Counted from the stretch's first letter, positions 12,156 through 32,326 are shown. The stretch: DNA of 64,000 bases from an uncultured Dehalococcoidaceae bacterium (GCA_964468755.1 CAYXWH010000001.1:15148-79147), one strand, 5' to 3'. The notes: generated by a model from the letters alone, not told the origin. A program made the numbers and translations.

Positions 12156-14117
12156 ATGAGCAAATTACTGTGGGAACCTACCGAGGAAACAATAAAACAG
12201 GCTAACATGACCAGATTTATCAACTTTGTCAATGAAAAACAAGGCATGAAACTAAACTCGTATGATGACCTCTATCAGTGGTCAATCGAGAATATACCTG
12301 AGCTCTGGGGAGCCGTCTGGGAATTCACCGATGTCAAAGCTTCGCGCGGCTATGACCGGGTGGTCGACGACCTCAATAAGTTCCCCGGTGCCACGTGGTT
12401 TGAAGGCGCCCGGCTGAACTTCGCCGAGAACCTGCTCCGCTACCGCGATAACCACACGGCATTCATCTTCAGGGGCGAGGATAAGAAATATACCCGCATG
12501 ACCTACGCCGAACTCTACTATACAGTAGCTCGCCTCGCCAAATCATTGCGTGAAATGGGGGTGAAGCCCGGGGACCGGGTAGCCGCCTATATGCCCAACT
12601 TGATAGAGACCGCTGTTGCCATGCTGGCGGCTACCAGTATCGGGGCGGTCTGGGCATCCTGCGCCACTGACCTTGGCCCGGGAGCTGTAATCGACCGTCT
12701 CGGGCAAATCGAACCGAAGGTCCTTTTCACCGTTGACGGCTATTTCTACAAAGCCAAGACCTTCAGCTCACTGGCCAACGCCGCCGAAATCGCCAACGGG
12801 ATACCGTCTCTGGAAAAGGTCATCGTGGTCCGTTATACCGAAGCGGACTCGGATATCAGCCAGATTCCCAACTCCGTCTACTATGACGTCTTTACCTCCC
12901 AGGAAGAAAAACCCGAGATTGAATTTGAACAACTCCCATTTATGCACCCGTTACTCATCATGTTCTCTTCCGGAACCACCGGAAAGCCAAAGTGTCTCGT
13001 CCAGAGTGCCGGAGGTATCCTGCTTAACCACGCGAAAGAGCTCATGATTCAGTCCGACGTCAAACGCGAGGACAAAATCTTCTACATCACCACCTGTAGC
13101 TGGATGATGTGGAACTGGCTGATCAGTTCTCTGGGAATCGGGGCGACAGTCATCCTCTACGACGGCAACCCCATGTACCCGGACGCCGGTGCCATGTGGA
13201 AGCTCATCCAGGATGAAAAGATAACCATTTTCGGCACCAGTGCCAGCTTCATTAACTACTGCAAGAGCGAAGGACTACAACCGGGCAAGGACTATAACCT
13301 TTCATCGATGCGGGAGATGTGTCAGACCGGCTCGGTGCTTTCCAGCGATGGTTTTGAATACATCTATGAGGCGATCAAGAAAGACCTGCACTTCAATTCC
13401 ATCGCCGGTGGTACCGACATTAACGGTTGCTTCGCCATCGGAAGCCCCACTGTCCCCGTTTACGCCGGTGAGCTACAGAGGTGGGGATTGGGCTTCAAGA
13501 TGAAATGCTACAACGAGAACGGCAAACCGGTAGTCGACCAGCTGGGTGAACTCGTCTGTGAAGCGCCCGCTCCGCCCATGCCACTCTACTTCTGGAATGA
13601 CCCGAACAATGAACGGTACATGGATGCATACTTCAACGTATATCCGGGAATCTGGCGCCACGGCGATTATGTCATGGCCCACAGTGATACCAACGGGGTA
13701 ACCTTCTTCGGTCGCTCCGATGCCCTCCTCAAACCTTCGGGAGTACGTATCGGCACGGCGGAAATCTATAATCAGGTAGAACTGCTGGATGAAATCGCCG
13801 ATAGCCTGGCGATAGGTCAGGACTGGAAGGGCGACCAGCGGGTGATACTTTTTGTGAAACTCGCCGAGGGATACGAACTGACCGAGGAACTGGAGAAGAA
13901 GATTAAAACGACCCTCCGGGTGAAAGCCTCGCCCCGGCATGTTCCGGCACGAATTCTCACCGCTCCCGACATTCCTTACACCCTTAATGGCAAGAAGGTG
14001 GAGACTGCGGTTACCAATATCATTCAGGGCAAGCCCGTATTGAACCGGGATGCCTTGAGCAACCCCGAATCGCTGGACTTCTACGAAAATATTGTCCCCG
14101 AACTGGAGAGGGCCTAA
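12156..14117 (+). CDS. aacS: acetoacetate--CoA ligase (acetoacetyl-CoA synthetase)
   Basis: 653 aa. The N-terminus MSKLLWEPTEETIKQANMTRF, the AMP-binding motif MFSSGTTGKPKC and the overall length fit the AacS subfamily of acyl-CoA synthetases. Confidence 0.75.
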   Translation: MSKLLWEPTEETIKQANMTRFINFVNEKQGMKLNSYDDLYQWSIENIPELWGAVWEFTDVKASRGYDRVVDDLNKFPGATWFEGARLNFAENLLRYRDNHTAFIFRGEDKKYTRMTYAELYYTVARLAKSLREMGVKPGDRVAAYMPNLIETAVAMLAATSIGAVWASCATDLGPGAVIDRLGQIEPKVLFTVDGYFYKAKTFSSLANAAEIANGIPSLEKVIVVRYTEADSDISQIPNSVYYDVFTSQEEKPEIEFEQLPFMHPLLIMFSSGTTGKPKCLVQSAGGILLNHAKELMIQSDVKREDKIFYITTCSWMMWNWLISSLGIGATVILYDGNPMYPDAGAMWKLIQDEKITIFGTSASFINYCKSEGLQPGKDYNLSSMREMCQTGSVLSSDGFEYIYEAIKKDLHFNSIAGGTDINGCFAIGSPTVPVYAGELQRWGLGFKMKCYNENGKPVVDQLGELVCEAPAPPMPLYFWNDPNNERYMDAYFNVYPGIWRHGDYVMAHSDTNGVTFFGRSDALLKPSGVRIGTAEIYNQVELLDEIADSLAIGQDWKGDQRVILFVKLAEGYELTEELEKKIKTTLRVKASPRHVPARILTAPDIPYTLNGKKVETAVTNIIQGKPVLNRDALSNPESLDFYENIVPELERA

Positions 14118-18204: not shown

Positions 18205-18244
18205 TAGACAAGACCTCCTTATTTTTAAAGTAACCCGGTAAGAG

Positions 18245-20218: not shown

Positions 20219-20407
20219 TTCCTTCCTCCTTGAACACATTAAGATTAGTATCCTGAACGGCTATACACCGGCAGCCGTTGTCTACCAATTTTCTTAAATG
20301 TTTAATATATTTATGTGGAGGATTGTCTCATTACTTTAGCTAGAAATGATTTCTGTACGGATTATCTATAATACCACCGGCGAATGTCAACAGTCCAGTA
20401 GTGAACA

Positions 20408-20445: not shown

Positions 20446-20877
20446 ATGACCGTTGATGAACTGGACAAAATATTAATAAAACTCCTCTCGGAAAACGCAA
20501 GACAGAGCAGCTATCAACTCGCCAAACAAGTGAACGTAAGCCCCAGCACTATAAGGAGAAGGATAAGGGAGCTTATTAAAAACGGCATCATCCGCACCAC
20601 CCTCACCATTGATTATGCGTCACTTGGTCTCCCCCTGGCAGCCCATATTGCATTGAATGTAAACCACGAGCAACTGGAGTCCGTCTGGGAAGCACTGCGG
20701 AAACTTCCCAATATAAAGCACGTTTCAATTACTGCCGGCAGATTTGATGTAATGGGAATGGTCCGGGTTTCATCCACGGAAGAGCTCTTAAAATTTGTCC
20801 AAAAGCAGATTACCCAGATACCCGGCGTGGAGAAGTGTGAAACGTTCATTTGCTTGCGTATGGAAAGGGCAACCTGA
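20446..20877 (+). CDS. Lrp/AsnC family transcriptional regulator
   Basis: 143 aa with an N-terminal HTH (LDKILIKLLSENARQSSYQLAKQVNVSPSTIRRRIRELI) and a C-terminal AsnC-type ligand domain. Confidence 0.85.
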   Translation: MTVDELDKILIKLLSENARQSSYQLAKQVNVSPSTIRRRIRELIKNGIIRTTLTIDYASLGLPLAAHIALNVNHEQLESVWEALRKLPNIKHVSITAGRFDVMGMVRVSSTEELLKFVQKQITQIPGVEKCETFICLRMERAT

Positions 20878-21174
20878 TATTATATAGATAATAATCCCGG
20901 TAAAAATCATCATGAATGCTTGTGTCCTAGCAATGGGCCATAAATAAACAATCTGGATAAAGCCAGGATCAGTGACAATCACCAGTAGAAAACGAGAGTG
21001 ACTATCAGCTACCCAAAACGAGCCTAATACACCTAATACGAGGTCAAGTGGAGGGAGTCTGTTGGGGTTTACCTCACCGGAGCGGTTGTTCGCACTACCA
21101 CCGGAGCAGAAGGGGGTGATGCCAGCAACACGTTGACTTAAATTGGCGCGATAATTTTATGTAAGGAGGGTACT

Positions 21175-21939
21175 ATGGCTGATTTATTTGATTTGACAGG
21201 AAAGGTTGCTGTCGTCACCGGTGGTGCGGGTGGCATCGGGTATGCTATCACGCTCGGGCTTGCTGATGCCGGTGCCGATGTGGTTGTCGCCAGTCGTAAG
21301 CTGGAGCACCTGAAGCCAGTGACCGAGGAGATTCGCAAAAAGGGCAGAAAATCACTGGCAGTCAGTGTCGACGTCGTTGATGAGAAGTCGACAAGCGATA
21401 TGGTAAAGAAGGTGATTGACGAGTTCAAGCGCATTGACATTCTGGTAACAGCCCACGGCCTCGCCATCCGGAACCCGGCTGATACTTTCTCGGTTGAAGA
21501 CTGGCAAAAAGTAATGGATATCAATGCACGCGGTGTTTTCATGACCAACCAGGCAGTGGGCCGGGAGATGATCAAGCAGAAAAGCGGCAAGATTATCAAC
21601 CTGTCTTCGGTGAGGGGCAGATATGGGCTCCCCAATGGCTATGTGGCTTATTGCCCCAGCAAAGGTGCTGTCGATATGCTAACGAGAACGCTTGCGTGTG
21701 AGTGGGCCAAATATAATGTTCTGGTAAATGCAGTCGCTCCAACTTTTGTAGAAACCGAGCTTACCCGGACTGCTCTTGCTAATCCCGAGTTTGCCGCTCA
21801 GGTTAAGGCTCGTATTCCGCTGGGCCGCTGGGCGTTGCCTGAGGATATTGTTGGCCCCACCCTGTTTTTCGCCTCGCCAGCATCGGATTTTGTTACCGGG
21901 CAAGTTCTCTACATTGATGGTGGTGTGACCACCTGGTAG
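21175..21939 (+). CDS. SDR family oxidoreductase (candidate phloroglucinol-reductase-type enzyme)
   Basis: 254 aa with TGGAGGIG, catalytic S...YCPSK and an AGGAGG RBS. It is the first gene of a 4-gene string. Confidence 0.8.
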   Translation: MADLFDLTGKVAVVTGGAGGIGYAITLGLADAGADVVVASRKLEHLKPVTEEIRKKGRKSLAVSVDVVDEKSTSDMVKKVIDEFKRIDILVTAHGLAIRNPADTFSVEDWQKVMDINARGVFMTNQAVGREMIKQKSGKIINLSSVRGRYGLPNGYVAYCPSKGAVDMLTRTLACEWAKYNVLVNAVAPTFVETELTRTALANPEFAAQVKARIPLGRWALPEDIVGPTLFFASPASDFVTGQVLYIDGGVTTW

Positions 21940-22000
21940 TAGCATAGTTAAAAAAGCAATAATTTTGCGGAACCTTTTACCACAAAAGGAGTAAGCGCAT

Positions 22001-22339
22001 ATGAAAAAGATAGCACTGGACCAGGTTAAGCCCTACGAGGCACCCGGACACTTTAAAATGGTTGCGCTCAGGTTAGCCGGAAAGGATGAGACCGGTTCCG
22101 AGAAATTCTGGATGGGCATGTCTCATTTCCTCCCCGGAGGCGGTGCCGAATGGGCTTATGAGGACTCACCCGCGGAGAAAGTGTACTTCGTCATTGACGG
22201 TGAAATCACGGTCAAGACCAAAGAGCAGGAAGTTACCGTCGGTCCCATGGAAGGGGTTTTTCTTCCGCCCAATGAGGGAAGAGAAATTCTTAATAAGACC
22301 AACAAGACGGTCAGTATGCTGGTAATAGTTAATTATTAG
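22001..22339 (+). CDS. small cupin domain protein
   Basis: 112 aa with single beta-barrel signatures (GHFKMVALRL...HFLPGGGAEWAYEDSPAEKVYFVIDGEITV). Confidence 0.6.
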   Translation: MKKIALDQVKPYEAPGHFKMVALRLAGKDETGSEKFWMGMSHFLPGGGAEWAYEDSPAEKVYFVIDGEITVKTKEQEVTVGPMEGVFLPPNEGREILNKTNKTVSMLVIVNY

Positions 22340-22659
22340 GATACTATCTTCGGTAGTCTGAGTGATTCGTTTGCCCATGGCTATGGGTAAAATCACTCGG
22401 ACTGCCGTAGGTGGGTTACAGGATGGTTACCCGGTCTTGTATGAGGGGCGGAGGAGCTGTTGTTTGGAGCCAACGGGATAGTGGACACCAAAATAGGCAG
22501 GGTTAGCATAGTGGGGTACCTGTTTCACCGGGGATGGGCCCGGTGCTTGTCAGATGCCAAGTAATCTGCTACCAGTGGAGAGAAAGGCATACAGTTTCCT
22601 TACACCTCATTGACACAGTAACTACTGAGACCAAAAAGGTATGGAAAGAGGGAGATAAC

Positions 22660-23610
22660 ATGCAAGCAAAGGACGTTACCAATATCTCGTTAATTGGTGC
22701 GGGCATGATAGCGCCTGGCGTTGCTCAGATATTCGCCACCGGCAACTACAATGTATGTATCTATGCCCGAAGACAGGAAGCACTGCCCACCGCTCTTGAC
22801 CGTATCAGGTCAAATCTCTCGACCATGGCCAAAAGTGGACTAGTCTCAGAAAATGACATTGAGCCAACGGTGAGCCGGATAAAAACGACCACCAATCTGG
22901 CTGAAGCGGCGACTGATGCTCATCTGGTTATCGAATGTATTGCCGAAAATCTGGAGGTAAAGCAGAATATCTTCCAACAGCTGGACCAACTTAGCCCGGC
23001 AGACGCCATTCTGGCAACCAACACCTCGGTAATCAGCATAACCCAGATTGCCGCCACGTCTAAAAACAGGCAGAGAATCCTGGGGACCCATTTCTGGAAC
23101 CCGCCTTACATGATTCCCCTGGTAGAAGTCGTCAAGGGAGATGAAACCTCTGACGAAGCCATGGAGATAACCTATCAGGTTATGAAGGCAGCGGGTAAAC
23201 ACCCGGTGAAGTGCCTGAAGGATGTCCCCGGATTTATCGCCAACCGAATGCAGCATGCCCTGTGGCGGGAAGCAATTTCCATCGTGGAAAACGGTATTTG
23301 TGACGCCGCCACTGTCGATGAAGCCCTCAAGAATAGCTTTGCTATCCGTCTCCCGGTCCTGGGACCAATTGAGACCGCGGATATGGTGGGGCTTGACCTG
23401 ACCCTATCCATCCACGATTACATTTTCAAGCACCTTGAATCCTCACGTGAAGCGTCCCCCCTTATCAAAGAGAAGGTGAAGAAGGGAGACCTGGGGTTCA
23501 AAACGGGTCAGGGTCTTCAGAAGTGGTCGCCTGAGGAGGCTCAGCAGTCACGCGACAGATTGCTGGAATACCTTATCGAATGGAGCAAGAGGACACAGGG
23601 TAAAGCCTAG
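22660..23610 (+). CDS. 3-hydroxyacyl-CoA dehydrogenase family protein (L-carnitine-dehydrogenase-like NAD-dependent 3-hydroxy acid dehydrogenase)
   Basis: The start is moved to ATG 22660, which follows GGGAGA. It has a Rossmann motif ISLIGAGMIAPGVA, the core NTSVISITQ...HFWNPPYMIPLVEVV, and GFIANRMQ. Confidence 0.8.
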   Translation: MQAKDVTNISLIGAGMIAPGVAQIFATGNYNVCIYARRQEALPTALDRIRSNLSTMAKSGLVSENDIEPTVSRIKTTTNLAEAATDAHLVIECIAENLEVKQNIFQQLDQLSPADAILATNTSVISITQIAATSKNRQRILGTHFWNPPYMIPLVEVVKGDETSDEAMEITYQVMKAAGKHPVKCLKDVPGFIANRMQHALWREAISIVENGICDAATVDEALKNSFAIRLPVLGPIETADMVGLDLTLSIHDYIFKHLESSREASPLIKEKVKKGDLGFKTGQGLQKWSPEEAQQSRDRLLEYLIEWSKRTQGKA

Positions 23611-23683
23611 CGCAGCTCTGGACAGCAATCCGGGCAACTCTTCGTTTAATTTAATAAAATCTAGGGTACTGGAGGAATAAATA

Positions 23684-24619
23684 ATGGATAAACTTATCAT
23701 CACGGCGGCATTAACGGGTAACATCACACTCCCCACCCAGACGCCCTATCTACCGCTGACACCCCAGCAAATTGCCGAGGAGGCGAAAAGGGCGGCTGAT
23801 GCCGGGGCGGCTTCGATACATGTTCATGGCAGAGACCCCAATACCGGAAGGCCGACCACCGACCCCGAAGTATACCGGGAAATCGCCACTCTGATCAAAG
23901 AAAAAACGGACGCCATTGTCTGCATCACCACCGGCGGCACCATGTACATGACCGCCGAGGAACGGGTGCGCGTTGTCCCCGCCCTCAAACCGGAGCTAGC
24001 CACGTTCAACATGGGTTCTATCAACTTCTCCATCCACCCCATTGCGGAACGGTACAAGGACGAGGATTACGTTTATCCCTGGGAGAAAGAATTCGCGGAG
24101 AGCACCAAGGAATTTATCTTCCGCAACACCTTCGCTGATATTGAGCACTTCTGCAAGACAATGCAGGAAAATGACACCAAGCCGGAGCACGAGTGCTATG
24201 ATGTCGGCCACCTCTACAATATGTACTACTTTGTCCGCAAGGGCTTAATCAAACCGCCTCTGTGGATGCAGTTTGTCACCGGCATTCTGGGAGGAATCGG
24301 CTCTAACCCGGAAACTGTCATGTTCCTGAAACAAACGGCTGACCGTTTGTTCGGCGTCGGCACCTATAACTGGTCGGTCATCGGCGCTGGCTACCCGGCA
24401 GAATTTAATGCATGTGCCCTATCAACAATGATGGGAGGACACGCTCGCGTCGGTCTGGAGGATAACATCTTCATTGAGAAAGGCGTCCTCGCCAAGAGCA
24501 ATGGCGAACTGGTCGAGAAGGCGGTGAGAATTGCCAGAGAACTCGGCCGTGAGATTGCCTCCCCTGACGAAGCCAGGCAAATCCTTGGCTTAAAAGGCAG
24601 GGACAAGGTCGGCTACTAG
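23684..24619 (+). CDS. beta-keto acid cleavage enzyme (BKACE / 3-keto-5-aminohexanoate cleavage enzyme family, DUF849)
   Basis: 311 aa. MDKLIITAALTGNITLPTQTPYLPLTPQQIAEEAKRAADAGAASIHVHGRDP is the canonical BKACE N-terminus. Confidence 0.8.
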   Translation: MDKLIITAALTGNITLPTQTPYLPLTPQQIAEEAKRAADAGAASIHVHGRDPNTGRPTTDPEVYREIATLIKEKTDAIVCITTGGTMYMTAEERVRVVPALKPELATFNMGSINFSIHPIAERYKDEDYVYPWEKEFAESTKEFIFRNTFADIEHFCKTMQENDTKPEHECYDVGHLYNMYYFVRKGLIKPPLWMQFVTGILGGIGSNPETVMFLKQTADRLFGVGTYNWSVIGAGYPAEFNACALSTMMGGHARVGLEDNIFIEKGVLAKSNGELVEKAVRIARELGREIASPDEARQILGLKGRDKVGY

Positions 24620-24647
24620 GCGAATAAGCCGGGCAACGTGGTGAACC

Positions 24648-25238
24648 TTATTCAGAATCCCGGCTTGGTGGGCTATCGTCCTTAGCAAATGACTTAAAAA
24701 AAGGCACTTCGCGGTATCTCCAATCCGCTGGCGGGGTTATCTGTGGCGGTGATTGCGTAAAATCAGCAATAACCTCAAAGTCATAAGCGGAGAAATATCG
24801 CAGAAGTGCCTTTTGTAATATACTTCTGACAATTATAAGTACGCTGGCCTCGGCTTCCAGAGCAAGTTTGACAGCCGGCATGAGCCCCCCGCCGGACAGT
24901 TCCACCGGACCAACTTCATCAATCACCACCAGATCACATTTATTGCCTGCCGCCTGCTCGATAGCCCGGCGGGCGAATTGAATTCCGTCGCGGCTAAAAG
25001 TATAGCGCCCGGCTATTTCCTCTTCACCGGATGGGCTGTCACCTGACTTCCGGGCAAAAGGCACCTCTTCGCCGGTTAACACATCAAGTACAGTATAGCC
25101 AGTCCGTACACCGTGCTCGCGTATCTCCGGAGAAATTACGCCGCCGACACTGAGCCCACAGCTCCGTAACCGGCTGATGTACTGCTGACACCAGGTGGTC
25201 TTGCCCGAACCCGGTTTACCGATAACAAGCATATTCAT
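24648..25238 (-). CDS. P-loop NTPase (THEP1/DUF2478-like)
   Basis: 196 aa with Walker A GKPGSGKTT and Walker B DLVVIDEVG. Confidence 0.6.
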   Translation of the reverse strand: MNMLVIGKPGSGKTTWCQQYISRLRSCGLSVGGVISPEIREHGVRTGYTVLDVLTGEEVPFARKSGDSPSGEEEIAGRYTFSRDGIQFARRAIEQAAGNKCDLVVIDEVGPVELSGGGLMPAVKLALEAEASVLIIVRSILQKALLRYFSAYDFEVIADFTQSPPQITPPADWRYREVPFFKSFAKDDSPPSRDSE

Positions 25239-25299
25239 GGCGATAAAATGTAACAGTTAATATTTACTCAAAGCTTTCTGTTTTGTCAACCATCCACTC

Positions 25300-25327
25300 T
25301 TGACAACTAACAATTGTGGTGTATAAT
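25300..25327 (+). promoter_or_regulatory. consensus sigma70 promoter TTGACA-16-TATAAT
   Basis: The -35 is at 25300-25305 and the -10 at 25322-25327. It implies a leader of about 220 nt before the SBP gene. Confidence 0.55.
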
Positions 25328-25546
25328 TCAGACAAAATCATGTGTTACTTTTCCCGGACTAAAGTCAAACCACCATTTACCATACACGACATCACCTATA
25401 GTATCACTGTAATCTGCGATATTAGATAGTCTACTATGCCAGATAGCTATCAACGAAGAGGCGTTCTCACCCTTGAAAGGAGGTGATATTCTGGCGAAGC
25501 AGTATACATGAAACTTTTCGTACAGCAATAACTATTAAAGGAAGGA

Positions 25547-27016
25547 TTGAAGCAAGTGAAAAGGTTAGTTATCATTCCGGTACTAATAATACTTGTCAGT
25601 GCCTCGCTCCTTATCAGTTGTGCTGAACCAGCTCCAGCTCCGGCACCAAGTCCAGCTCCAAGTCCAGCTCCAAGTCCAGCCCCAACCCCAGCACCAAGTC
25701 CAGCACCAAGTCCAGCACCAAGTCCAGCTCCAAGTCCAGCACCAAGCCCAGCACCAACACCGGCGCCAGCGGGACCAGAAGAGATTCTGATTGGTGCTGA
25801 CGCCTGCTTAACCGGCATGTATGCCGGTTTCGGTGAAGGTGCCGTATTTGGGATGGAAGCTGCTGTCGAGGATATTAACAAGCAAGGTGGCATATATATA
25901 GAAGAGTATGGCCGCAAAATCCCTGTCAAACTCGTAGTTGCCGACAATGAAAGCGATCTATCCAAGGCAGGGACTCTGGCTGAAGACCTGATACTCCGCG
26001 ACAAGGTAAAGTTCCTCATGACAACTGGAGCACTGGAGGTTAATTTCCCGATAGCGAGGGTAGCTGAGCGGTACAAAGTCCCATTTATGATCGGACCCGG
26101 TCCCTATGAATCCTGGCAAGCTATGCGTATGGAAGCCGATCCGCCCTGGAAATACACCTGGGGTGTCAGTTTTGCTATAGCCACTCCATCTCCAGAGGGA
26201 GATTTTCGCCATGATACACCGGGATATTCTATGTTTGATGCCTGGTTGGGTGCGCTTCAATTCTTCGGTGATGAGACCAATAAGAAGATAGCTCTCCTGG
26301 CCTCGGATGACCAGGACGGCAGAGGTTGGTATTTGGCGTTTGCACCAACGGCTGAATCAATAGGCATGGAGACTTATCATTCGGATGAACAATTTGGCCT
26401 GGTGCCTATGGATACCACGGACTTTAGCGCCCTGATAGGGAAATGGAAGGCCGACAATTGTGAGCTACTCTGGTCCAATTGTCCGGCGCCCTTTTTCGGG
26501 ACATTTTGGAGACAAGCTCGCACGCTGGGCTATCAACCCAAGCAGGTTTTTGCTACCAGGGCGGGGCTTTTCTACACCGATGTAACAGCGTGGGGAGGTG
26601 ACCTGCCACAGGGTATCTGCAATGAGATGTTCTGGAATCCGTCGATTGAGGGTACTCACGGTATTGGCGACACCACTGCCGTGAGCCTCCATGAAAGATG
26701 GTTTGAAGCGACAGGTCAACCAATGCACCAGATTATGGGCTGGATCTATGCTGATGCGCAAGTCCTGTTCGATGCTATTGAAAGAGCCGGCAGCCTTGAC
26801 GGAGAAAAAGTTAATGCAGCTCTGGCGCAAACCGATATGATGACAATTTATCATCGTGTCGTGTTTGACAAAGATCAGTATAGCCGGATTCCGGTTACTT
26901 TTGGCCAATGGCAGAAGACGGACAAGCCCTGGGTATGGGACAACCCGATAGTCTACTCGGATCATGATTTCATGCCGACCACGGCTGAGATGATATTCCC
27001 TATCCCCTATGACTAG
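25547..27016 (+). CDS. orphan LivK-type (PBP type 1) ABC substrate-binding lipoprotein
   Basis: It has a lipobox LLISC, a 50-residue PAPS linker, then [37 protein letters not shown], which is typical of Leu/Ile/Val-type binding proteins. A likelier start is GTG 25556, 9 nt after AAGGAAGGA. Confidence 0.8.
25628..25777 (+). repeat. 12-nt tandem repeat (CCAAGTCCAGC[T/A]C-type) encoding the (PSPA)n linker
   Basis: About 10 imperfect 12-nt units encode [50 protein letters not shown]. Confidence 0.8.
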
Positions 27017-27091
27017 ACCGGGAAATACCGGAAAGCGTGCTTTCCCACTGACGTCACCTCAGGTTTGACACGATAAAGTACGAAAAGACAA

Positions 27092-27137
27092 GCGGGGAAA
27101 CCAGCCAAGTAAGATTCTCATAGGCTGGTTTCCCCGC
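27092..27137. terminator. 15-bp perfect stem-loop 3' of the SBP gene (terminator or mRNA stabiliser; no T-tract)
   Basis: GCGGGGAAACCAGCC (27092-27106) pairs with GGCTGGTTTCCCCGC (27123-27137) around a 16-nt loop. Confidence 0.45.
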
Positions 27138-27182
27138 AGTAATGCCGAATACCAGCCCTTGCCGGTCAGGTGTGGAAACAAG

Positions 27183-27243: not shown

Positions 27244-29838
27244 ATGGCTTATTCCGCAAATGGTGAACAAGTTTTTACCAACTGCACCGTGGGCGGGCCC
27301 GTCAATGTCTACGTTAAAGACGGAAGAATAACCCGAATGGAACCTCTGCAACTTGATGAGGACGATGCCAAATCCTGGGTAATCGAAGCACGGGGTAAGA
27401 AGTTCTCCCCCCCCAGGAAAGCACTGCTTTCCCCGTATACGTTGACCGAGAGGGCAAAAATATACTCGGCAAACCGCCTTCTTTACCCGATGAAGCGGGT
27501 AGACTTCGACCCTAAAGGCAATCGAAATCCACAGAACAGAGGCAAATCAGGATACCAGCCAATCAGCTGGAAGGAAGCCCTGGATATCCTCTGTCCGGAA
27601 ATAGAGCGCATCCATGCTAAATACGGTCCGGGGGTTGTCGCCAGTACCGCATCTTCTCACCACAGCTGGGGCAATATCGGGTACCGGCACAGTACCTATT
27701 TCCGGTTCATGGGCATCCTCGGCTATACCTACTGCGACCATAACCCGGATAGCTGGGAAGGCTGGCACTGGGGGGCCATGCACACCTGGGGCTTTGCCTG
27801 GAGGCTGGGGGCTCCGGAACAATACGACCTTTTACAGGACGCCCTGAAGAACACTGAGATGATGATTTTCTGGTCGGCTGACCCTGAGTCCACCAGTGGA
27901 ATTTACGCCGGGCAGGAATCAACCCCGAGGCGCTTCTGGCTGAAAGACCTGGGGGTAAAGATGGTCTTTATTGACCCCTACTATAATTTCACGGCGCCCA
28001 ACTTCTGCGACAAATGGTTTGCGCCACGTCCAGGCACCGATACCGCCCTCGCTGCGGCTATCGCCTACGTCTGGATGACCGAAAACATATATGACAAAGA
28101 ATATGTTGCCAAGCGAACCTACGGCTTTGAAAAATGGCGTGACTACATACTCGGCGACGACGGCAGCTTCCCCAAGACACCGGAGTGGGCGGAGAAGGAG
28201 ACCGGAATACCCGCCCGGGAGATTAAAGCCCTCGCCCGGGAATGGTCGAAGAAGAAGACCATGCTGGCGGCTGGGGGTCTTGGCGGCTGGGGAGGAGCCT
28301 GCCGAAGCGCCTACGGGACCGAGTGGGCGCGGATGATGGTGCTCCTTCAGGCAATGCAGGGCCTGGGCAAACCCGGCATCAATATCTGGGCAACCACCGG
28401 CGGCGCCCCCTATAACTCCGATTTTGTCTTTCCCGGATACGCTGAAGGCGGAATATCCGGCGACCCGCTAAATTCCGCCGCGACCTATCAAATGGTAAGC
28501 CGTGGAAGCACCATGAGCCCGGTTAACTCGGCAATAAACAATCCCGGCGGACAGCACATACCGCGGATTCTGGTTCCGGAGTGTATCATGGACGCGCCCC
28601 AGGAATGGCGGGGCAAGGGATTTTGCGGTTCCTCCACCGAATTCCAGTTCAAGAAGTACAAGTACCCCGAAGACGGATTTTCCCGGGTGAAAATGTTTTG
28701 GCGGTATGGCGGTGCCTATATCGGCACCATGAACAATACCAACCGCTGGGTCAAGATGTACCAGAGCCCGAACCTGGAAATGGTGGTCAACCAGTCCATC
28801 TGGCTGGAAGGCGAAGCCCAGTTTGCTGACCTGATACTCCCTGCCTGCACCAACTTCGAAAGGTGGGACATCGGTGAGTGGTCCCATTGCTCGGGTTACA
28901 TACCCCATAACTCCTACCAGACCAACCACCGCATAATCGTCTTTGAAAAGAAATGCATTGAACCACTCGGAGAATCGAAGTCAGACTACGATATATTTGC
29001 CATGATTGCCGACCGGCTCGGCTTCCACGACAAGTTCACCGAGGGAGGCATGACTGACTTAGACCGGGTCAAGAGGATGTATGAGGTAACCGACCTGTCG
29101 AAGTACATTTCCTGGGAGGATTTCGAGAAGAAAGGCTACTTCGTGGTTCCCATGCCTGACGATTATAAACCAACACCAGCGCTGAGGTGGTTTGCCGAGA
29201 ACCGGCACCGGGATACACCCGATTGGGGTCCTGTTGGCGCCGCTGTGGAAGGCCTGCCCGACCGTGAAGGAAACCTGAGCACCCAGACCGGTAAAATTGA
29301 ATTTGAGTCGCAGAGCCTCAAGCGCTTCGACCCTGATGACCCGGAGCGGCCGCTGGTCCCCAAGTACATACCATCGTGGGAGGGCCACCATACCACGGAG
29401 CTTCTTGAAAATTATCCGCTGCAGCTTATTTCACCGCATCCCAGGTTCAGCTTCCATACCCAGTACGATGGCAAAGAAAGCTGGATGAACGAGATACCGG
29501 AGCACCGTGTCAAGGCAAAAGACGGTCACTACTACTGGGTAATCAGGCTAAACAAAGTGGATGCTGACAAGAGAGGTATCAAGAGCAATGACATCGTCAG
29601 GGTCTTTAACGACCGGGGCGTTGTTTTATGTGCCGCCCAGGTTACCGGGCGCGTCCCGACCGGTGTGGTCCATTCTTATGAGTCCAGTGCTGAATACCAG
29701 CCCATCGGCGAGCCCGGTGAATCACCGGACAAAGGCGGCAGCATTAACCTGCTGACCAATCACCGCTTCATGTCAAAGAATGCCTGCGGCATGGCACCTA
29801 ATTCATGCCTCGTGGAAATAGCCAAGGAAGGAGCTTAA
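27244..29838 (+). CDS. athL: pyrogallol hydroxytransferase (transhydroxylase) large-subunit-like molybdopterin enzyme (DMSO reductase family)
   Basis: 864 aa. Recalled from memory, it is full-length colinear with Pelobacter acidigallici AthL (GGPVNVYVKDGRITRMEP, SSHHSWGNIGYRHSTYFRFMGILGYTYCDHNPDSWEGWHWGAMHTWGF, LPACTNFERWDI, GMAPNSCLVEI). Like AthL it has no Tat signal and no N-terminal Cys cluster. Confidence 0.8.
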   Translation: MAYSANGEQVFTNCTVGGPVNVYVKDGRITRMEPLQLDEDDAKSWVIEARGKKFSPPRKALLSPYTLTERAKIYSANRLLYPMKRVDFDPKGNRNPQNRGKSGYQPISWKEALDILCPEIERIHAKYGPGVVASTASSHHSWGNIGYRHSTYFRFMGILGYTYCDHNPDSWEGWHWGAMHTWGFAWRLGAPEQYDLLQDALKNTEMMIFWSADPESTSGIYAGQESTPRRFWLKDLGVKMVFIDPYYNFTAPNFCDKWFAPRPGTDTALAAAIAYVWMTENIYDKEYVAKRTYGFEKWRDYILGDDGSFPKTPEWAEKETGIPAREIKALAREWSKKKTMLAAGGLGGWGGACRSAYGTEWARMMVLLQAMQGLGKPGINIWATTGGAPYNSDFVFPGYAEGGISGDPLNSAATYQMVSRGSTMSPVNSAINNPGGQHIPRILVPECIMDAPQEWRGKGFCGSSTEFQFKKYKYPEDGFSRVKMFWRYGGAYIGTMNNTNRWVKMYQSPNLEMVVNQSIWLEGEAQFADLILPACTNFERWDIGEWSHCSGYIPHNSYQTNHRIIVFEKKCIEPLGESKSDYDIFAMIADRLGFHDKFTEGGMTDLDRVKRMYEVTDLSKYISWEDFEKKGYFVVPMPDDYKPTPALRWFAENRHRDTPDWGPVGAAVEGLPDREGNLSTQTGKIEFESQSLKRFDPDDPERPLVPKYIPSWEGHHTTELLENYPLQLISPHPRFSFHTQYDGKESWMNEIPEHRVKAKDGHYYWVIRLNKVDADKRGIKSNDIVRVFNDRGVVLCAAQVTGRVPTGVVHSYESSAEYQPIGEPGESPDKGGSINLLTNHRFMSKNACGMAPNSCLVEIAKEGA

Positions 29839-29841
29839 ACG

Positions 29842-30672
29842 ATGACTAACTGGGGTATGATAATCGATGTATCAAAGTGCACCGGCTGCTACAACTGTTT
29901 CACCGCTTGTAAAGACGAATACTGGGATAATGATTATCCCCCCTATTCCTCAGGTCAGCCAAAGCACGGGCAATTCTGGATGAATATCGATACCAGAGAA
30001 CGTGGCGCCCACCCCTTCGTAAAAGTCGCTCACATACCTCTGCCCTGCATGCACTGTGACGACGCCCCCTGCATTAAGGCAGCCAAGGATGGTGCCGTCT
30101 ACAAGAGACCTGACGGCGTAGTTATCATAGACCCGAAGAAGGCGGTGGGACAAAAGCAAATAGTTGATGCCTGTCCCTATAATGTAATTTACTGGAATGA
30201 GGAAAAACAGCTTCCCCAGAAGTGTACCTTCTGTGTCCACCGGCTTGAAGCCGGAGAGGTTCCGCGCTGTGTACAGGCATGTCCCAGCGGGGCCCTGATA
30301 TTCGGTGACATGGATGACCCTAAAAGTGAGATTTCCCAGGTTATGGCCTCCGGGAAGACCGAAGTCCTCAATCCGGAACTAAAGACCAAGCCAAGGGTAT
30401 ACTACATCGGGATACCCAGAATGTTTATCGCGGGCAGTGCCGTATTTGAAGACACAGACGAATGTGCCGAGGGAGTGACGGTCACCCTGACCGAACAGTC
30501 TTCCGGCAAATCAATGAAGACCGCTACCAACAACTATGGAGAATTTGAATTTGACGGTCTTGTGTCCGGAAAGTACGTGGTGCAACTGGGATACAACGGT
30601 TATGCGGGAAAGAAGATTGATATAGAACTGAAAACAGACAACTACCTGGGAGCAATTTCCCTGTCTCGATAA
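29842..30672 (+). CDS. bthL: pyrogallol hydroxytransferase small-subunit-like 4Fe-4S protein with C-terminal Ig-like domain
   Basis: 276 aa with CTGCYNCFTAC, CMHCDDAPC and CTFCVHRLEAGEVPRCVQACP. The C-terminal NNYGEFEFDGLVSGKYVV beta-sandwich matches that of BthL. Confidence 0.8.
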   Translation: MTNWGMIIDVSKCTGCYNCFTACKDEYWDNDYPPYSSGQPKHGQFWMNIDTRERGAHPFVKVAHIPLPCMHCDDAPCIKAAKDGAVYKRPDGVVIIDPKKAVGQKQIVDACPYNVIYWNEEKQLPQKCTFCVHRLEAGEVPRCVQACPSGALIFGDMDDPKSEISQVMASGKTEVLNPELKTKPRVYYIGIPRMFIAGSAVFEDTDECAEGVTVTLTEQSSGKSMKTATNNYGEFEFDGLVSGKYVVQLGYNGYAGKKIDIELKTDNYLGAISLSR

Positions 30673-30733: not shown

Positions 30734-31438
30734 GTGCAACGTCTCAGCAATATTAAGAGTCCCATGACGTCAGAGAGTTTGGTAGGTGCTCTGATTGCGG
30801 TGGTGGTCTTCGGTTCTATCTGGGGGCTGGTAGAAGCCACGCTGGGTGGCTTCCTGCACCTCATCCACGTACCCCCATTGTATAAAGGAGCTATTACCGG
30901 TGGCATCGGTATGGCACTCATGGCAATCTTTGTCACCACCTACAAACGGCCCACCCTTGTCTTCGCGATAGGAGTGATTGCCGCACTTTTCAAGCCATTG
31001 AGCGCTATTATATATGCCCAGCCGGTTTTCGCTCCGTTTGTGGTCAACCCGGCCACGGCAATCGTTCTCGAGGCGCTGGGGTTCTGCCTGGTAGCCAGCC
31101 TGCTGCACAAAGGCTTCGAAAGCAGCGTTAAATCACGCGTAGCCATTGGCGTCTCCGCCGGTTACCTGGGCTTTATTCTATTCGCCATTGTCGCCTCGGC
31201 ACTGGGCTTTGGCAAATGGCCCATGATGGGGATTACTGATAAATTAGTTACCACACTGTCCAATGGCACAGCCCTGGCTATTGTCGGTACGTTGCTGCTG
31301 CTGCCGGGGCATCTCGCTGGCAGGCAACTGAGACCCATACTCAGTGCCATGAAACCCAGGACATTCTATGCCGGCGCTGCGGTCAGTATCGTGTTTTGCT
31401 GGGCTATCGCGTCACTTGCCTTTGCCGTCGGTTTGTAG
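30734..31438 (+). CDS. integral membrane protein of unknown family (about 6 TM), co-transcribed with the athL/bthL-like genes
   Basis: 234 aa with a GTG start 7 nt after AAGGAGG. It is hydrophobic throughout. I recognise no motif. Confidence 0.55.
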   Translation: MQRLSNIKSPMTSESLVGALIAVVVFGSIWGLVEATLGGFLHLIHVPPLYKGAITGGIGMALMAIFVTTYKRPTLVFAIGVIAALFKPLSAIIYAQPVFAPFVVNPATAIVLEALGFCLVASLLHKGFESSVKSRVAIGVSAGYLGFILFAIVASALGFGKWPMMGITDKLVTTLSNGTALAIVGTLLLLPGHLAGRQLRPILSAMKPRTFYAGAAVSIVFCWAIASLAFAVGL

Positions 31439-31603: not shown

Positions 31604-32326
31604 ATGGTAAACACCACCACAAAGGGACATGACGAAGTAGCCGAGGCACGCAGCCAGATATACAACCTCTTTGGTGCTCTTTATCTTGAACTGCCCGGTT
31701 TACCGCTGCTGGAAAGCGTATTTGGCGATGAGTTTGAGCGCCAGCTCTCCATGGCTGCCACCAAACTCGATTTGACCAAGATGAAGCGGGGGTTAAAGCT
31801 GGTTACCCGGTTTGTTAACGACTTTAAAGACCAGCCCAGGGATGAAGTCCTCACCCTCGTTTCCGTTGACCGGACACGGCTCCTGCGGGGAGTCAACGCA
31901 CAACTCAGCCCATTACCACCCTACGAGTCAGTTTACCGGGAAGGTCGCCTCTGGGGAGAATCCACTGTAGACGTCGCTCATACTTTTCCCAAACTGGGAG
32001 CCAAACTTCCCGAGCAATGGACTGAGCCACCGGACTACATTGGTATTGAGTTTGACCTCATGCGCCTCATCTGCCAGAGCGAACATGACGCGTGGCATTC
32101 CGGCGATGCCGCCAAAGCTCTGGAATATCTGGAAGCAGGACGAGACTTCTTGAAGAAACATATCCTGCTGTGGGTCCCCGGTTTCTGCGATCAAATGTAC
32201 CGGAGGGCGGAGATCACCTTTTACCAGGGAATCGCCCGGATGACCGATGGCTTCGTAAAGTATGACGGTCATCTCGTGGATTATCAGATTAACGTGGTTA
32301 GAAAGAATCTCGCCGAGCAAGCTTAG
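31604..32326 (+). CDS. TorD/DmsD/NarJ-family molybdoenzyme maturation chaperone
   Basis: 240 aa, all-helical. The conserved PPDYIGIEFDLMRLI block matches the (E/P)PxDHIxxELxFM motif of the TorD family. Confidence 0.7.
   Translation: MVNTTTKGHDEVAEARSQIYNLFGALYLELPGLPLLESVFGDEFERQLSMAATKLDLTKMKRGLKLVTRFVNDFKDQPRDEVLTLVSVDRTRLLRGVNAQLSPLPPYESVYREGRLWGESTVDVAHTFPKLGAKLPEQWTEPPDYIGIEFDLMRLICQSEHDAWHSGDAAKALEYLEAGRDFLKKHILLWVPGFCDQMYRRAEITFYQGIARMTDGFVKYDGHLVDYQINVVRKNLAEQA

Follow-up and report, generated by a model that had tools for sequence, protein, structure and literature searches.

Does an operon whose other genes point to the anaerobic degradation of phloroglucinol open the ring with a small cupin, or with an enzyme encoded elsewhere? 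This question arises from a 64-kb stretch of bacterial DNA (the window), which had previously been annotated without database searches. This sequence-only reading described five consecutive genes, for an Lrp/AsnC regulator, a short-chain reductase (SDR), a cupin, a 3-hydroxyacyl-CoA-dehydrogenase-fold enzyme (HCDH) and a BKACE. An ORF and Pfam check found all five on the plus strand, exactly where they had been placed (Table 1).

Table 1. Features of the predicted pyrogallol/phloroglucinol island, in window coordinates.
Feature	Position	Strand	Basis
Acetoacetate-CoA ligase	12156..14117	+	TIGR01217 851 bits (cut-off 521), NF002937 893 bits
Lrp/AsnC-family transcription regulator, opens the cluster	20446..20877	+	Pfam HTH_AsnC-type and AsnC_trans_reg
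SDR1-type short-chain reductase, 254 aa	21175..21939	+	Pfam adh_short
SDR-cupin spacer, 61 bp, site of the cyclase-family (DPGC) gene in relatives	21940..22000	.	Gene absent here
Small cupin, 112 aa, Rv1717/CSCA_1081 family	22001..22339	+	Pfam Cupin_2
Very stable RNA hairpin directly 3' of the cupin stop codon	22344..22414	+	-45.8 kcal/mol, z = -7.4
Spacer with a weak trace of a former bicupin gene	22415..22659	+	blastx E = 0.001
3-Hydroxyacyl-CoA-dehydrogenase-fold enzyme (HCDH)	22660..23610	+	Pfam 3HCDH_N and 3HCDH
BKACE, 311 aa	23684..24619	+	Pfam E = 2.7e-108
NTPase_1/DUF2478 protein	24648..25238	-	Pfam; conserved beside transhydroxylase genes
Solute-binding protein, periplasmic-binding-protein type, Pro/Ala/Ser-rich linker	25547..27016	+	Pfam Peripla_BP_6
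Transhydroxylase large (Mo-bisMGD) subunit, AthL	27244..29838	+	Pfam AhtL-like_1st; PDB 4v4c_A match
Transhydroxylase small (Fe-S) subunit, right after the large-subunit gene	29842..30672	+	Pfam Fer4_11
Conserved 234-aa protein (unk234), transhydroxylase-associated	30734..31438	+	Homologues adjoin AthL/BthL and NTPase, >12 loci
TorD/NarJ-type chaperone for Mo-enzyme maturation	31604..32326	+	Pfam Nitrate_red_del

The order SDR-cupin-HCDH-BKACE is shared by 10 or more independent metagenome contigs (L081-L087) and by locus L004, and it is therefore due neither to chance nor to misassembly. The regulator keeps its position in L004 and L082-L087. In L048, which is cut at its upstream edge, the SDR gene is followed directly by those for cupin, HCDH and BKACE. 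The HCDH reading frame is open already from 22534; the 316-aa form starts at 22660, as chosen by gene callers on identical metagenome contigs. The dN/dS values between the window and L081 are 0.05-0.18 for SDR, cupin, HCDH, BKACE and AthL, and the remaining genes of this cyclase-less operon are under purifying selection.

A predicted route from pyrogallol to acetoacetyl-CoA

The acetoacetate-CoA ligase gene and the region 20446-32326 would jointly form an island for fermentation of the plant phenols pyrogallol and phloroglucinol in an uncultured member of the Chloroflexota (probably Dehalococcoidia). An AthL/BthL-type molybdenum transhydroxylase, judged by homology and catalytic residues, would convert pyrogallol to phloroglucinol. 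The SDR would reduce the latter with NADPH to dihydrophloroglucinol (DPG), a role suggested by its position and by its mutual exclusivity with canonical-type phloroglucinol reductases (PGRs). The HCDH-fold enzyme would oxidise the ring-opened product, (S)-3-hydroxy-5-oxohexanoate; BKACE and acetyl-CoA would split triacetate into acetoacetate and acetoacetyl-CoA, and the nearby ligase would activate the acetoacetate that BKACE releases. The earlier assignment of the operon to the anaerobic phloroglucinol pathway is well supported by the BKACE model, the transhydroxylase, the ligase and synteny with genes of the cyclase family, to which the DPG cyclohydrolase (DPGC) belongs, in about 130 related loci.

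The AthL gene lies 2.6 kb downstream of the operon. Judged by its alignment to the Pelobacter acidigallici enzyme (4v4c_A; 1140 bits, residues 11-861 aligned to 7-866), AthL is orthologous over its full length to the pyrogallol-phloroglucinol transhydroxylase of Pelobacter, and His144, Arg153, Asp174, the Mo ligand Ser175 and Tyr404 of that enzyme are all kept. Both enzymes have a beta subunit with Fe-S clusters and a C-terminal Ig-like domain (CarboxypepD_reg in the window), and neither has an evident signal peptide. Unlike in P. acidigallici, the predicted transhydroxylase is accompanied by unk234, for which no Pfam or NCBIfam match was found, by the NTPase_1 protein, whose gene is syntenic with those for unk234 and AthL in >12 loci, and by a TorD-like chaperone, which matches the NCBIfam TorD and DMSO-reductase type II chaperone models below their cut-offs. 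The product of the gene at 25547, which is conserved in related loci, is probably a substrate-binding protein.

The HCDH-fold enzyme, whose gene is in synteny with those for cupin and BKACE in most loci, is probably the (S)-3-hydroxy-5-oxohexanoate dehydrogenase, equivalent to TfD/HOHD. Its S123, H144 and N195, read from the sequence, have the same spacing as S122, H143 and N194 of Clostridium scatologenes TfD (CsTfD). BKACE is probably the triacetate (3,5-dioxohexanoate) acetoacetate-lyase (TAL). Its best NCBIfam model is NF053538 ('3,5-dioxohexanoate:acetyl-CoA acetone transferase'), with 414.5 bits, 15 bits below the curated equivalog threshold of 430, and its best PDB match is 3lot (4e-114), compared with 4e-49 for the lysine enzyme Kce (2y7d). 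Homologues of the ligase are encoded at most 10 kb from the cupin in >10 related loci.

The SDR is probably a functional phloroglucinol reductase, but not orthologous to the PGR type whose structure is known: its identity to PDB 5g4k is 34% (33-37% for the SDR1 type overall), compared with 44-49% for the SDRs encoded in clusters of Desulfobacterota. In most loci from Dehalococcoidia the SDR1 gene immediately precedes that for the cyclase. An arginine ('ASRK') can be read at the NADP site of the window SDR.

These data bear on two other readings of the operon. Pairs of HCDH and BKACE are known also from carnitine catabolism, and the sequence-only reading had offered a carnitine-like or other 3-hydroxy-acid module as its alternative, with lysine-fermentation subfamilies also named. 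The HCDH does match carnitine dehydrogenase models, but weakly (127-141 bits against cut-offs of 414-592), while BKACE scores only 276 bits on the lysine Kce model. The synteny is to cyclase, cupin and transhydroxylase, and genes of lysine fermentation or carnitine metabolism were not found within the window. We reject this alternative on the model scores and the synteny, and consider it highly improbable. The SDR1-type clusters of Dehalococcoidia might instead act on a different, though related, ring, such as a phloroglucinol with substituents or some other 1,3-dioxo ring. Such a substrate would fit the low identity to 5g4k relative to the Desulfobacterota SDRs, the higher scores of the window SDR on the KduD and gluconate 5-dehydrogenase models than as PGR type, and the neighbourhood, where a paralogue with 59% identity is encoded along with O-demethylase-like and arylsulfotransferase genes. 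However, these clusters share their cyclase, cupin, HCDH and BKACE families with the canonical clusters and very often adjoin transhydroxylase orthologues, whose product is phloroglucinol. Furthermore, SDR1 and 5g4k types exclude each other across clusters, as expected of functional equivalents. Together, these results make a different ring unlikely.

The cupin and the missing cyclase gene

The characterised DPGC is a Mn-dependent enzyme of the 'cyclase' family (PMC10470551). The previous statement that a hydrolase gene is absent between SDR and cupin is correct: only the short spacer is left. A cyclase-family homologue was not found in any frame of the window (best E = 0.33 with tblastn, 5.1 with a profile HMM), nor was a cyclase remnant detectable in the spacer or a DPGC found up to ~10 kb beyond the right end of the window. 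In L004 the spacer is 230 bp long and holds a cyclase pseudogene, internally deleted and frameshifted, as a deletion scar; in L044 (Desulfatiglandaceae) the cupin is kept and the cyclase is absent. It seems that the cyclase was lost repeatedly beside a retained cupin, in the lineage of the window and L081, in L004 (where the scar is fresh) and in L044. An ancestral gene between SDR and cupin would have been deleted in the window's lineage, with the other genes kept under purifying selection.

The cupin has 1173 homologues at 63-93% identity (pLDDT of its AF2 model, 80.5). A cyclase match is present in 72 of 80 related loci, usually directly upstream of the cupin; it is immediately upstream in 64/87 loci, with a median gap of 39 nt. 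The identity of the cyclase was confirmed on representatives with Pfam PF04199. In the reverse scan, 63 of the 75 informative cyclase loci contained the cupin. The two genes co-occur in about 85-90% of clusters from three phyla, and the cupin is found both in the HCDH and BKACE architecture and in that with CoA-transferase III and SDR. With it the pathway has a fifth gene, widely conserved, so far unexplained and maintained as a partner of the cyclase gene. Since it almost always adjoins the cyclase-family DPGC in both branches, it is most likely an accessory at the DPG step. The ring-opening position that it had been given in the sequence-only reading is not its usual one: the cupin normally stands beside the cyclase and not in its place. 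It is odd that the window's lineage lost the operon's cyclase gene yet has retained a cupin on which purifying selection is strong.

The cluster of C. scatologenes encodes PGR and DPGC as well as TfD and TAL; these four enzymes reconstitute the pathway without a cupin (Zhou et al. 2023, mBio, PMC10470551). The same organism also encodes the cupin, which speaks against the cupin as a non-orthologous replacement. Consecutive locus tags belong to the cupin (CSCA_1081, 113 aa), CsPGR (CSCA_1082) and CsDPGC (CSCA_1083), and cupin peptides from phloroglucinol-grown cells carry the family signature PNEGRE..N.TN; the cupin next to the reductase and DPGC genes is undiscussed in PMC10470551. CsDPGC is the slow step, with a kcat of about 1/s versus 22-25/s and 78-395/s for the neighbouring steps (PMC10470551). 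Speculatively, the cupin could bind or tautomerise the DPG enolate or act as partner of the slow cyclohydrolase. The window shares with C. scatologenes an SDR reductase, an HCDH-fold dehydrogenase with equal Ser/His/Asn spacing, a BKACE triacetate lyase and the same small cupin family. It differs in lacking a cyclase-family DPGC, in an SDR of another subfamily (about 34% identity to the structure of the PGR type), in its host (Chloroflexota versus Clostridia) and in its neighbours, a Mo transhydroxylase and an acetoacetate-CoA ligase instead of thiolase, CoA-transferase and butyrate genes.

A role of the cupin in opening the ring had been tied to metal ligands in this protein; the canonical histidine ligands are absent from it, as from its highly conserved family. 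The best structural match is TM1459, a small Mn-binding cupin of Thermotoga maritima of equal single-domain size (PDB 1vj2 and variants; Foldseek E about 1e-7, TM-score about 0.65, about 25% identity). TM1459 holds its metal with four histidines, where a HMMER alignment places E54, S56, K60 and R94 of the window cupin; in the register of 1v70 the ligand positions are occupied by Y53, D55, E59 and R94. The only NCBIfam match with a strong E-value is NF050094 ('beta-D-galactosidase'; Rv1717 of Mycobacterium tuberculosis, about 113 aa, a similar length), also the sole family reported at E <= 1e-8 for ten other cluster cupins. The matches to cluster cupins run end to end with 72-97 bits, far short of the 175 bits set as equivalog cut-off for the mycobacterial family. 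Rv1717 lies within the predicted operon Rv1714-Rv1718 (PMC2724278), and M. tuberculosis is among the organisms with a DPGC homologue according to Zhou et al. (PMC10470551). The activity published for this cell-wall-associated protein, without discussion of the operon, is hydrolysis of pNP-beta-galactoside (Bharti et al. 2021, PMC7873859); no link between this activity and the genomic setting of the window cupin is apparent.

Possible sources of the ring-opening activity

We consider it moderately likely that the locus is a pyrogallol/phloroglucinol island with the cupin as accessory at the DPG step, a deleted cyclase gene and a DPGC acting in trans. Ring opening would then most probably be supplied, as we assume, by a DPGC whose gene lies in another part of the genome. 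Two cupin loci occur in each of two MAGs, CAYFSE01 (L017 and L045) and CAZCZJ01 (L043 and L059), and related MAGs often have two SDR-cyclase-cupin modules, which could explain such a supply. But with a second complete module the window's cupin should be no less dispensable than the cyclase; the strongest constraint in the operon acts on it (dN/dS 0.054), which counts against supply by a second module. This constraint would suit a cupin that, alone or with the SDR, opens DPG by retro-Claisen cleavage as a non-orthologous replacement of a dispensable Mn cyclase. So would the absence of the cyclase from the operon, the whole window and at least 10 independent contigs, and its recurrent loss beside a retained cupin. 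The invariant K60 and R94, at the metal-ligand positions of other cupins, could in principle stabilise an enolate oxyanion. Against this stand the joint occurrence of cupin and cyclase in most clusters and the lack of a canonical metal site for a hydrolytic water. To our knowledge, no cupin catalyses hydrolytic retro-Claisen cleavage without metal or O2. Moreover, the window cupin keeps every family-invariant residue, with none changed lineage-specifically, and in C. scatologenes DPGC alone opens the ring (PMC10470551). We therefore regard catalysis by the cupin as improbable.

The pathway might also be truly incomplete. Making DPG from pyrogallol and phloroglucinol, to detoxify them or to dispose of electrons, would then be one activity of the organism, and using up 3-hydroxy-5-oxohexanoate or triacetate that neighbours with a DPGC release would be a separate one. 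Loss of the cyclase while genes both upstream and downstream of this step stay under selection is consistent with such a division of labour, as is the solute-binding protein of the cluster. The same division was proposed in a 2026 preprint for SAR116 genomes with transhydroxylase and PGR and without DPGC (10.64898/2026.07.17.739263). DPG would, however, have to be exported and a labile keto-acid imported, and a single co-oriented cluster holds all the genes behind one regulator; we give this reading a low probability.

Two further features lie between the cupin and HCDH genes. None of 200 shuffled sequences was as stable as the hairpin, which is conserved in L081 and matches no Rfam family. 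The spacer behind it gave a match, weak within the window, to a 280-aa bicupin of L056 and L008; bicupin remnants stand out more clearly in the corresponding spacers of L081-83 (3.5e-8) and L004 (1e-7).

Gene cluster and pathway assignment

The five open reading frames of the sequence-only reading were all recovered on the plus strand (see the table); for the HCDH-fold protein the start at 22660 is that of the 316-aa form, which gene callers had chosen on identical contigs. When the whole window was scanned with Pfam and NCBIfam, this operon proved to be the centre of a larger island with the order Lrp, SDR, cupin, HCDH, BKACE, NTPase (opposite strand), solute-binding protein, transhydroxylase large (AthL) and small (BthL) subunits, the 234-aa protein unk234 and a chaperone. 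The spacer between SDR and cupin is 61 bp long. The same order is repeated on at least ten contigs (L081-L087) that were assembled independently from JGI and ENA metagenome samples. It is kept in the related locus L004 as far as that contig extends, and the SDR-cupin-HCDH-BKACE portion is present at a contig edge in the relative L048. This repetition indicates that the arrangement is real. Among genomes, the cupin locus has its closest relatives in Dehalococcoidia.

Features of the island and of related loci (window coordinates unless a locus handle is given)
Feature	Position	Strand	Evidence or remark
AprA/fumarate-reductase-like flavoprotein paralogue	10108-12081	+
Acetoacetate-CoA ligase	12156-14117	+	TIGR01217, 851 bits, above curated cut-offs
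Arylsulfotransferase-family gene and URO-D-family gene (methyltransferase/O-demethylase-like)	14161-15351, 15409-16743	-	upstream of cluster
Group of second SDR, flavoprotein and small ferredoxin	16935-17705, 17854-18327, 18245-20239	-
Lrp/AsnC regulator	20446-20877	+	Pfam
SDR	21175-21939	+	Pfam
Cupin_2 protein, 112 aa	22001-22339	+	Pfam
Hairpin, directly 3' of the cupin stop codon	22344-22414	+	-45.8 kcal/mol, z = -7.4
Bicupin remnant	22415-22659		faint
3HCDH_N + 3HCDH protein, 316 aa	22660-23610	+	Pfam; ORF open from 22534
BKACE	23684-24619	+	Pfam, E = 2.7e-108
Solute-binding protein	25547-27016	+
Transhydroxylase large subunit	27244-29838	+	4v4c_A (Pelobacter acidigallici), 1140 bits, full length
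Transhydroxylase small subunit	29842-30672	+	Fer4_11 + CarboxypepD_reg (Fe-S + Ig-like)
unk234, 234 aa	30734-31438	+	no Pfam/NCBIfam match
AprA/fumarate-reductase-like flavoprotein paralogue	37796-39403	-
ADP-forming acetate-CoA ligase	44389-46488	+	score at its cut-off
Bicupin, 280 aa, intact	L008 920-1762, L009 3712-4575, L012 10169-11032, L013 2718-3581, L056 3616-4458
Bicupin remnants in related loci	L004 1979-2227, L081 1281-1912

The characterised anaerobic phloroglucinol pathway comprises four enzymes: an SDR-type phloroglucinol reductase (PGR), a Mn2+-dependent dihydrophloroglucinol cyclohydrolase (DPGC), an HCDH-fold 3-hydroxy-5-oxohexanoate dehydrogenase (TfD) and a BKACE-family triacetate acetoacetate-lyase (TAL) (Zhou et al. 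2023, PMC10470551). By far the best NCBIfam model for the BKACE of the window is NF053538, '3,5-dioxohexanoate:acetyl-CoA acetone transferase', with 414.5 bits, which is 15 bits below the curated cut-off of 430; the lysine Kce model reached 276 bits (cut-off 382). The nearest solved structure is 3lot (4e-114), with Kce 2y7d at 4e-49. The HCDH-fold protein carries S123, H144 and N195 in the motifs NTS, HFWNP and PGFIANR with the same spacing as S122, H143 and N194 of the Clostridium scatologenes enzyme CsTfD, offset by one residue, so that this catalytic Ser/His/Asn set is common to both and marks a putative 3-hydroxy-5-oxohexanoate dehydrogenase. The sequence YARRQ at the end of beta-2 suggests the use of NADP. 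Carnitine dehydrogenase models gave 127-141 bits against cut-offs of 414-592. Because the BKACE fits NF053538 best and the HCDH protein is far below the carnitine cut-offs, a carnitine-like module, which the sequence-only reading had offered as an alternative, and a lysine-fermentation module are both rejected. The tentative assignment of the operon to anaerobic phloroglucinol degradation in that reading is supported by the BKACE model ranking, the HCDH catalytic spacing, the transhydroxylase neighbours and synteny with the cyclase in related loci.

The transhydroxylase genes match the architecture of the Pelobacter acidigallici enzyme, with a full-length large subunit (residues 11-861 aligned with 7-866 of 4v4c_A) and an Fe-S/Ig-like beta subunit, the gene of which begins 4 nt past the end of the large-subunit gene. 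His144, Arg153, Asp174, Ser175 and Tyr404 are all identical in the window; we take Ser175 to be the Mo ligand and the other four to have the roles described by Messerschmidt et al. 2004, whose numbering fits the 4v4c chain. Companions of the transhydroxylase are a TorD/NarJ-type chaperone, an NTPase_1 protein and unk234, a conserved protein outside any family. In the 90% cluster of the transhydroxylase the named members are from Chloroflexota MAGs, and transhydroxylase operons in such organisms have been noted before (Hug et al. 2013, PMC3971608). One further MAG (JADHXB01, L088) has a transhydroxylase more than 90% identical to that of the window but in a different neighbourhood, with another cupin of 118 aa. 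Homologues of the acetoacetate-CoA ligase occur within 10 kb of the cupin in more than ten related loci; together with the acetate-CoA ligase this enzyme would allow phloroglucinol to be fermented all the way to acetate, with ATP made at the substrate level.

The reductase position is occupied by an SDR with an arginine at the NADP site and 34% identity to 5g4k, which we take to be the Clostridium phloroglucinol reductase. It belongs to a type, called SDR1 here, which throughout the Dehalococcoidia clusters is 32-37% identical to 5g4k (33-34% in the closest relatives of the window) and which, the SDR of the window included, has higher scores against KduD and gluconate dehydrogenase (Gno) models. 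For SDRs of the Desulfobacterota clusters 5g4k is the clear top match, with 246 bits vs 169 for the next and 44-49% identity. The distance of SDR1 from 5g4k and its preference for the KduD and gluconate dehydrogenase models would fit an enzyme acting on a different substrate. However, wherever an SDR could be recognised at the reductase position in the loci compared, it was of either the SDR1 or the 5g4k type, and the two never occurred together, which makes such a role improbable. We read this mutual exclusivity as functional equivalence, and SDR1 as a PGR analogue recruited from the same superfamily; in the literature found, this replacement of the canonical type is new.

Phloroglucinol is a funnel for the oxygen-free mineralisation of flavonoids and tannins. 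The pathway is thus relevant to carbon storage in peat and sediments and to gut polyphenol metabolism. Gene-based surveys (CAMPER-type annotation) take PGR and DPGC as markers; since the reductase of these Dehalococcoidia, which are abundant in the subsurface, is non-canonical and some of their clusters are without DPGC, surveys of this kind can miscount them.

The cyclase gene and its cupin partner

The sequence-only reading had offered the cupin as a candidate for the ring-opening hydrolase. The characterised DPGC is not a cupin; it belongs to the isatin-hydrolase-like 'cyclase' family (PMC10470551). No cyclase homologue was detected in the 64-kb window (tblastn E >= 0.33; profile HMM E >= 5, six frames), and about 10 kb past its right end hold fatty-acid synthesis and housekeeping genes only and no cyclase.

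The cupin has 1173 detectable homologues, almost all of 110-113 aa, with 70-93% identity among the matches listed. When one genome per GTDB species was scanned, 348 stretches came up, of which the best 80 were taken as loci; these belong to Dehalococcoidia, Desulfobacterota (Desulfobacteraceae, Desulfatiglandaceae, Syntrophales) and one Bacillota MAG. Mapping of the window's proteins onto them placed the cupin almost always beside SDR, HCDH and BKACE, and often beside AthL/BthL. The cyclase gene that is missing from the window is present in 72 of these 80 loci. It encodes a protein of 253-323 aa (Pfam Cyclase, PF04199) with the motif HxxTHxDxPxH and lies immediately upstream of the cupin in 64 of 87 loci, with a median gap of 39 nt. 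Two size classes can be distinguished, one of about 312 aa, like CsDPGC, and one of about 253-270 aa, which is near the 276-aa Mycobacterium tuberculosis DPGC homologue listed by Zhou et al. (PMC10470551). In the reciprocal scan of JGI metagenome contigs with cyclase alignment A2 the cupin was present in 63 of the 75 cyclase loci with room for it; among the 12 loci without it, several lie at contig edges. In L059 (2263-3159) a truncated cyclase seems to be fused to the cupin in one ORF, but this is an artefact of an N run in the genome record. The two counts do not support the idea of the cupin as a stand-in for the hydrolase: it is a partner of the cyclase and not its substitute, and for the lineage of the window such a role keeps low odds.

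The cupin-cyclase pair was found in two downstream architectures, one with HCDH and BKACE and one with a CoA-transferase of family III and a FabG-like SDR. The second has the order SDR1, cyclase, cupin, CoA-transferase III, FabG-like SDR, without HCDH or BKACE; the CoA-transferase/FabG-like pair lies at 10353-11573 and 11613-12404 in L011 and occurs in about 25 loci. A CoA-dependent phloroglucinol route has reportedly been proposed for Pelobacter acidigallici, and by analogy the second architecture is probably a branch of this kind. An aldolase-dependent pathway is said to have been described in Collinsella. Since SDR, cyclase and cupin are the genes common to both architectures, the cupin is tied to the steps from phloroglucinol through dihydrophloroglucinol (DPG) to 3-hydroxy-5-oxohexanoate.

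A trace of the lost cyclase was found in L004, the cupin of which is 79% identical to that of the window. Its 230-bp SDR-cupin spacer encodes MGKVTLVDLSHPPGGKCPLW joined to DPCHNIL, then a frameshift and then NGTTGWENVGGDRDQVTG; here a cyclase N-terminus is fused to the C-terminal third, with the metal-binding motif deleted. The position of the scar indicates an ancestral order SDR-cyclase-cupin. Because it is still readable although synonymous sites of L004 and the window have diverged to saturation (dS > 1.3), the deletion in L004 is recent and probably independent of that in the window. A 14.8-kb Desulfatiglandaceae contig (L044) also has cupin, BKACE, a 5g4k-type SDR, HCDH and AthL without a cyclase. 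The remaining genes are not decaying. Between the window and L081, both without cyclase, dN/dS is 0.175 for SDR, 0.054 for cupin, 0.076 for HCDH, 0.097 for BKACE and 0.059 for AthL, and these low values argue for functional genes. A cluster that has no DPGC and is still under selection in a Dehalococcoidia lineage is new with respect to the literature found.

Remnants of a 280-aa bicupin are present in the cupin-HCDH spacers of L004 and L081-83. The intact bicupin has normal HxH..E..H metal motifs and follows the small cupin in five clusters of the CoA-transferase type.

Cupin family, fold and ligand positions

The family of the window's cupin is also present in the CHARACTERISED C. scatologenes cluster. 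While the word 'cupin' is absent from the main text of Zhou et al., their proteomics supplement contains A0A0E3GQA0, a 'Cupin_2 domain-containing protein' of 113 aa (CSCA_1081), the locus tag of which adjoins CSCA_1082 (CsPGR) and CSCA_1083 (CsDPGC, 312 aa) (PMC10470551). Its peptides KNDSIFIGPNEGR and EMINETNTVATVLVIISYK align with the C-terminus of the window's cupin, MEGVFLPPNEGREILNKTNKTVSMLVIVNY; about half of the residues are identical by manual count, and every family-invariant residue of this region is kept (P90, E92, G93, R94, E95, N98, T100, N101). The cupin is not essential in vitro, since reconstitution with the four enzymes succeeds without it; CsDPGC is the slow step, with a kcat of 1.04/s vs 22-25/s for PGR and 78-395/s for TfD (PMC10470551). 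The cupin travels with DPGC in at least three phyla, as well as in the characterised Clostridium cluster, and the slowness of DPGC in vitro makes the cupin an obvious candidate for a missing piece of the ring-opening step. We found no paper giving this cupin a part in the phloroglucinol pathway.

The only strong NCBIfam match of the cupin is NF050094 (3.4e-20), followed by (S)-ureidoglycine aminohydrolase models at about 1e-6 to 1e-7. NF050094 is the equivalog model derived from M. tuberculosis Rv1717, and its name is 'beta-D-galactosidase'. With 72.3 bits over residues 6-110 (model 6-108 of 113) against a cut-off of 175, the window's cupin is homologous to this model over its full length, yet by its score outside the equivalog. 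For ten other cluster cupins (L041, L079, L110, L115, L116, L118, L120, L122, L124, L164) it is the sole model at E <= 1e-8; cluster cupins match it end to end with 72-97 bits, again below 175. Hydrolysis of pNP-beta-galactoside by Rv1717 has been reported in a paper that leaves the operon unmentioned (PMC7873859); the gene lies in the predicted operon Rv1714-Rv1718 (PMC2724278), and M. tuberculosis is among the organisms with DPGC homologues in the list of Zhou et al. (PMC10470551). Given the genomic context in three phyla, it is doubtful that 'beta-D-galactosidase' describes the physiological role of the family. The annotation of Rv1717 is probably misleading and, as the context suggests, deserves re-examination.

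The AF2 model of the cupin is a single small beta-barrel (pLDDT 80.5) with the Mn cupin TM1459 and TTHA0104 as nearest structural neighbours. The canonical motifs G-x5-HxH-x3,4-E-x6-G and G-x5-PxG-x2-H-x3-N were tested for the His/His/Glu/His ligands. There is no histidine at any of these ligand positions in the cupin; the motif-1 glutamate (E59) alone is kept. In the HMMER alignment E54, S56, K60 and R94 take the places of the four TM1459 histidine ligands, while in the register of 1v70 the HxH..E..H positions correspond to Y53, D55, E59 and R94. The HxH positions are thus Y53/D55 or E54/S56 depending on the register, and the motif-2 histidine is the invariant R94. The loop 51-56, which holds the HxH positions, is shortened or deleted in the 110-aa subgroup; K60, R94, H17, E30, K35, W37, Y62, E92 and E95 are among the invariant residues. 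As judged from these ligand positions the cupin is probably metal-independent, or at least non-canonical, which speaks against metal-dependent ring opening by this protein; the sequence-only reading had itself named missing metal ligands as a ground against such a role. A lysine and an arginine at the usual place of the metal would suit an anionic enolate such as DPG, or a carboxylate. The pathway and the transhydroxylase were already known, as were Dehalococcoidia DPGC homologues in the supplement of Zhou et al. (PMC10470551); new relative to the literature found is the near-universal, very conserved cupin partner of DPGC without histidine metal ligands.

Source of the ring-opening step and surroundings of the cluster

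In the proposed route the enzymes of the island, together with ring opening, would convert pyrogallol to phloroglucinol, DPG, 3-hydroxy-5-oxohexanoate and triacetate; the latter would give acetoacetate and acetoacetyl-CoA, and from these acetyl-CoA and acetate. The ring-opening step would be encoded outside the cluster, and the most economical reading is that a DPGC elsewhere in the genome supplies it. Two MAGs each contain two separate SDR-cyclase-cupin modules (CAYFSE01, L017 and L045; CAZCZJ01, L043 and L059), so that redundancy allowing the loss of one cyclase copy is plausible. However, supply in trans leaves unexplained why the cupin gene is more constrained than any other although it would be just as redundant as the cyclase, and why the cyclase was lost repeatedly while the cupin was retained.

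These two observations are the reason for retaining two further explanations. In one, a cupin of the Rv1717/CSCA_1081 type would itself be a DPG catalyst acting through the invariant Lys60 and Arg94 instead of a metal site and would suffice for ring opening in the lineage of the window, with the Mn-cyclohydrolase dispensable. The regular pairing of cupin and cyclase makes this unlikely; if it were true, the M. tuberculosis homologue would wrongly bear the name 'beta-galactosidase'. In the other, the pathway would be incomplete or the organism would depend on cross-feeding, as has been proposed for SAR116 genomes with PGR and transhydroxylase but without DPGC (10.64898/2026.07.17.739263); we give this little probability. 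The protein unk234 was considered as an alternative hydrolase and set aside, for many loci have both it and the cyclase, and its gene is always found among transhydroxylase genes. More than 12 Dehalococcoidia loci conserve it beside these and an NTPase_1/DUF2478 gene, and it may be a maturation factor or an extra transhydroxylase subunit.

The hairpin behind the cupin gene is kept in L081, where substitutions preserve the pairing, and is without a T-tract. As an intercistronic element for processing or stabilisation it might separate the expression of SDR-cupin from that of HCDH-BKACE. No Rfam family was matched by the hairpin or the remaining cluster, and a consensus promoter/terminator scan found fewer terminator-like sites than in shuffled sequence.

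Upstream of the cluster, the arylsulfotransferase and URO-D neighbours suggest that methoxylated or sulfated phenols are fed into the pathway; URO-D homologues near the cupin cluster were also seen in L010, L016, L017, L023, L038 and L046. The second SDR, 59% identical to that of the operon, lies beside an AprA/fumarate-reductase-like flavoprotein and a small ferredoxin, and in many Dehalococcoidia loci similar flavoproteins are encoded a few kb upstream of the SDR-cyclase-cupin genes. Together they may constitute a redox module with a link to polyphenol catabolism that has so far gone unrecognised. The solute-binding protein has a long (Pro-Ala/Ser)n low-complexity linker following its signal/lipobox region, which yields a spurious 208-aa ORF of GAGL repeats on the opposite strand.
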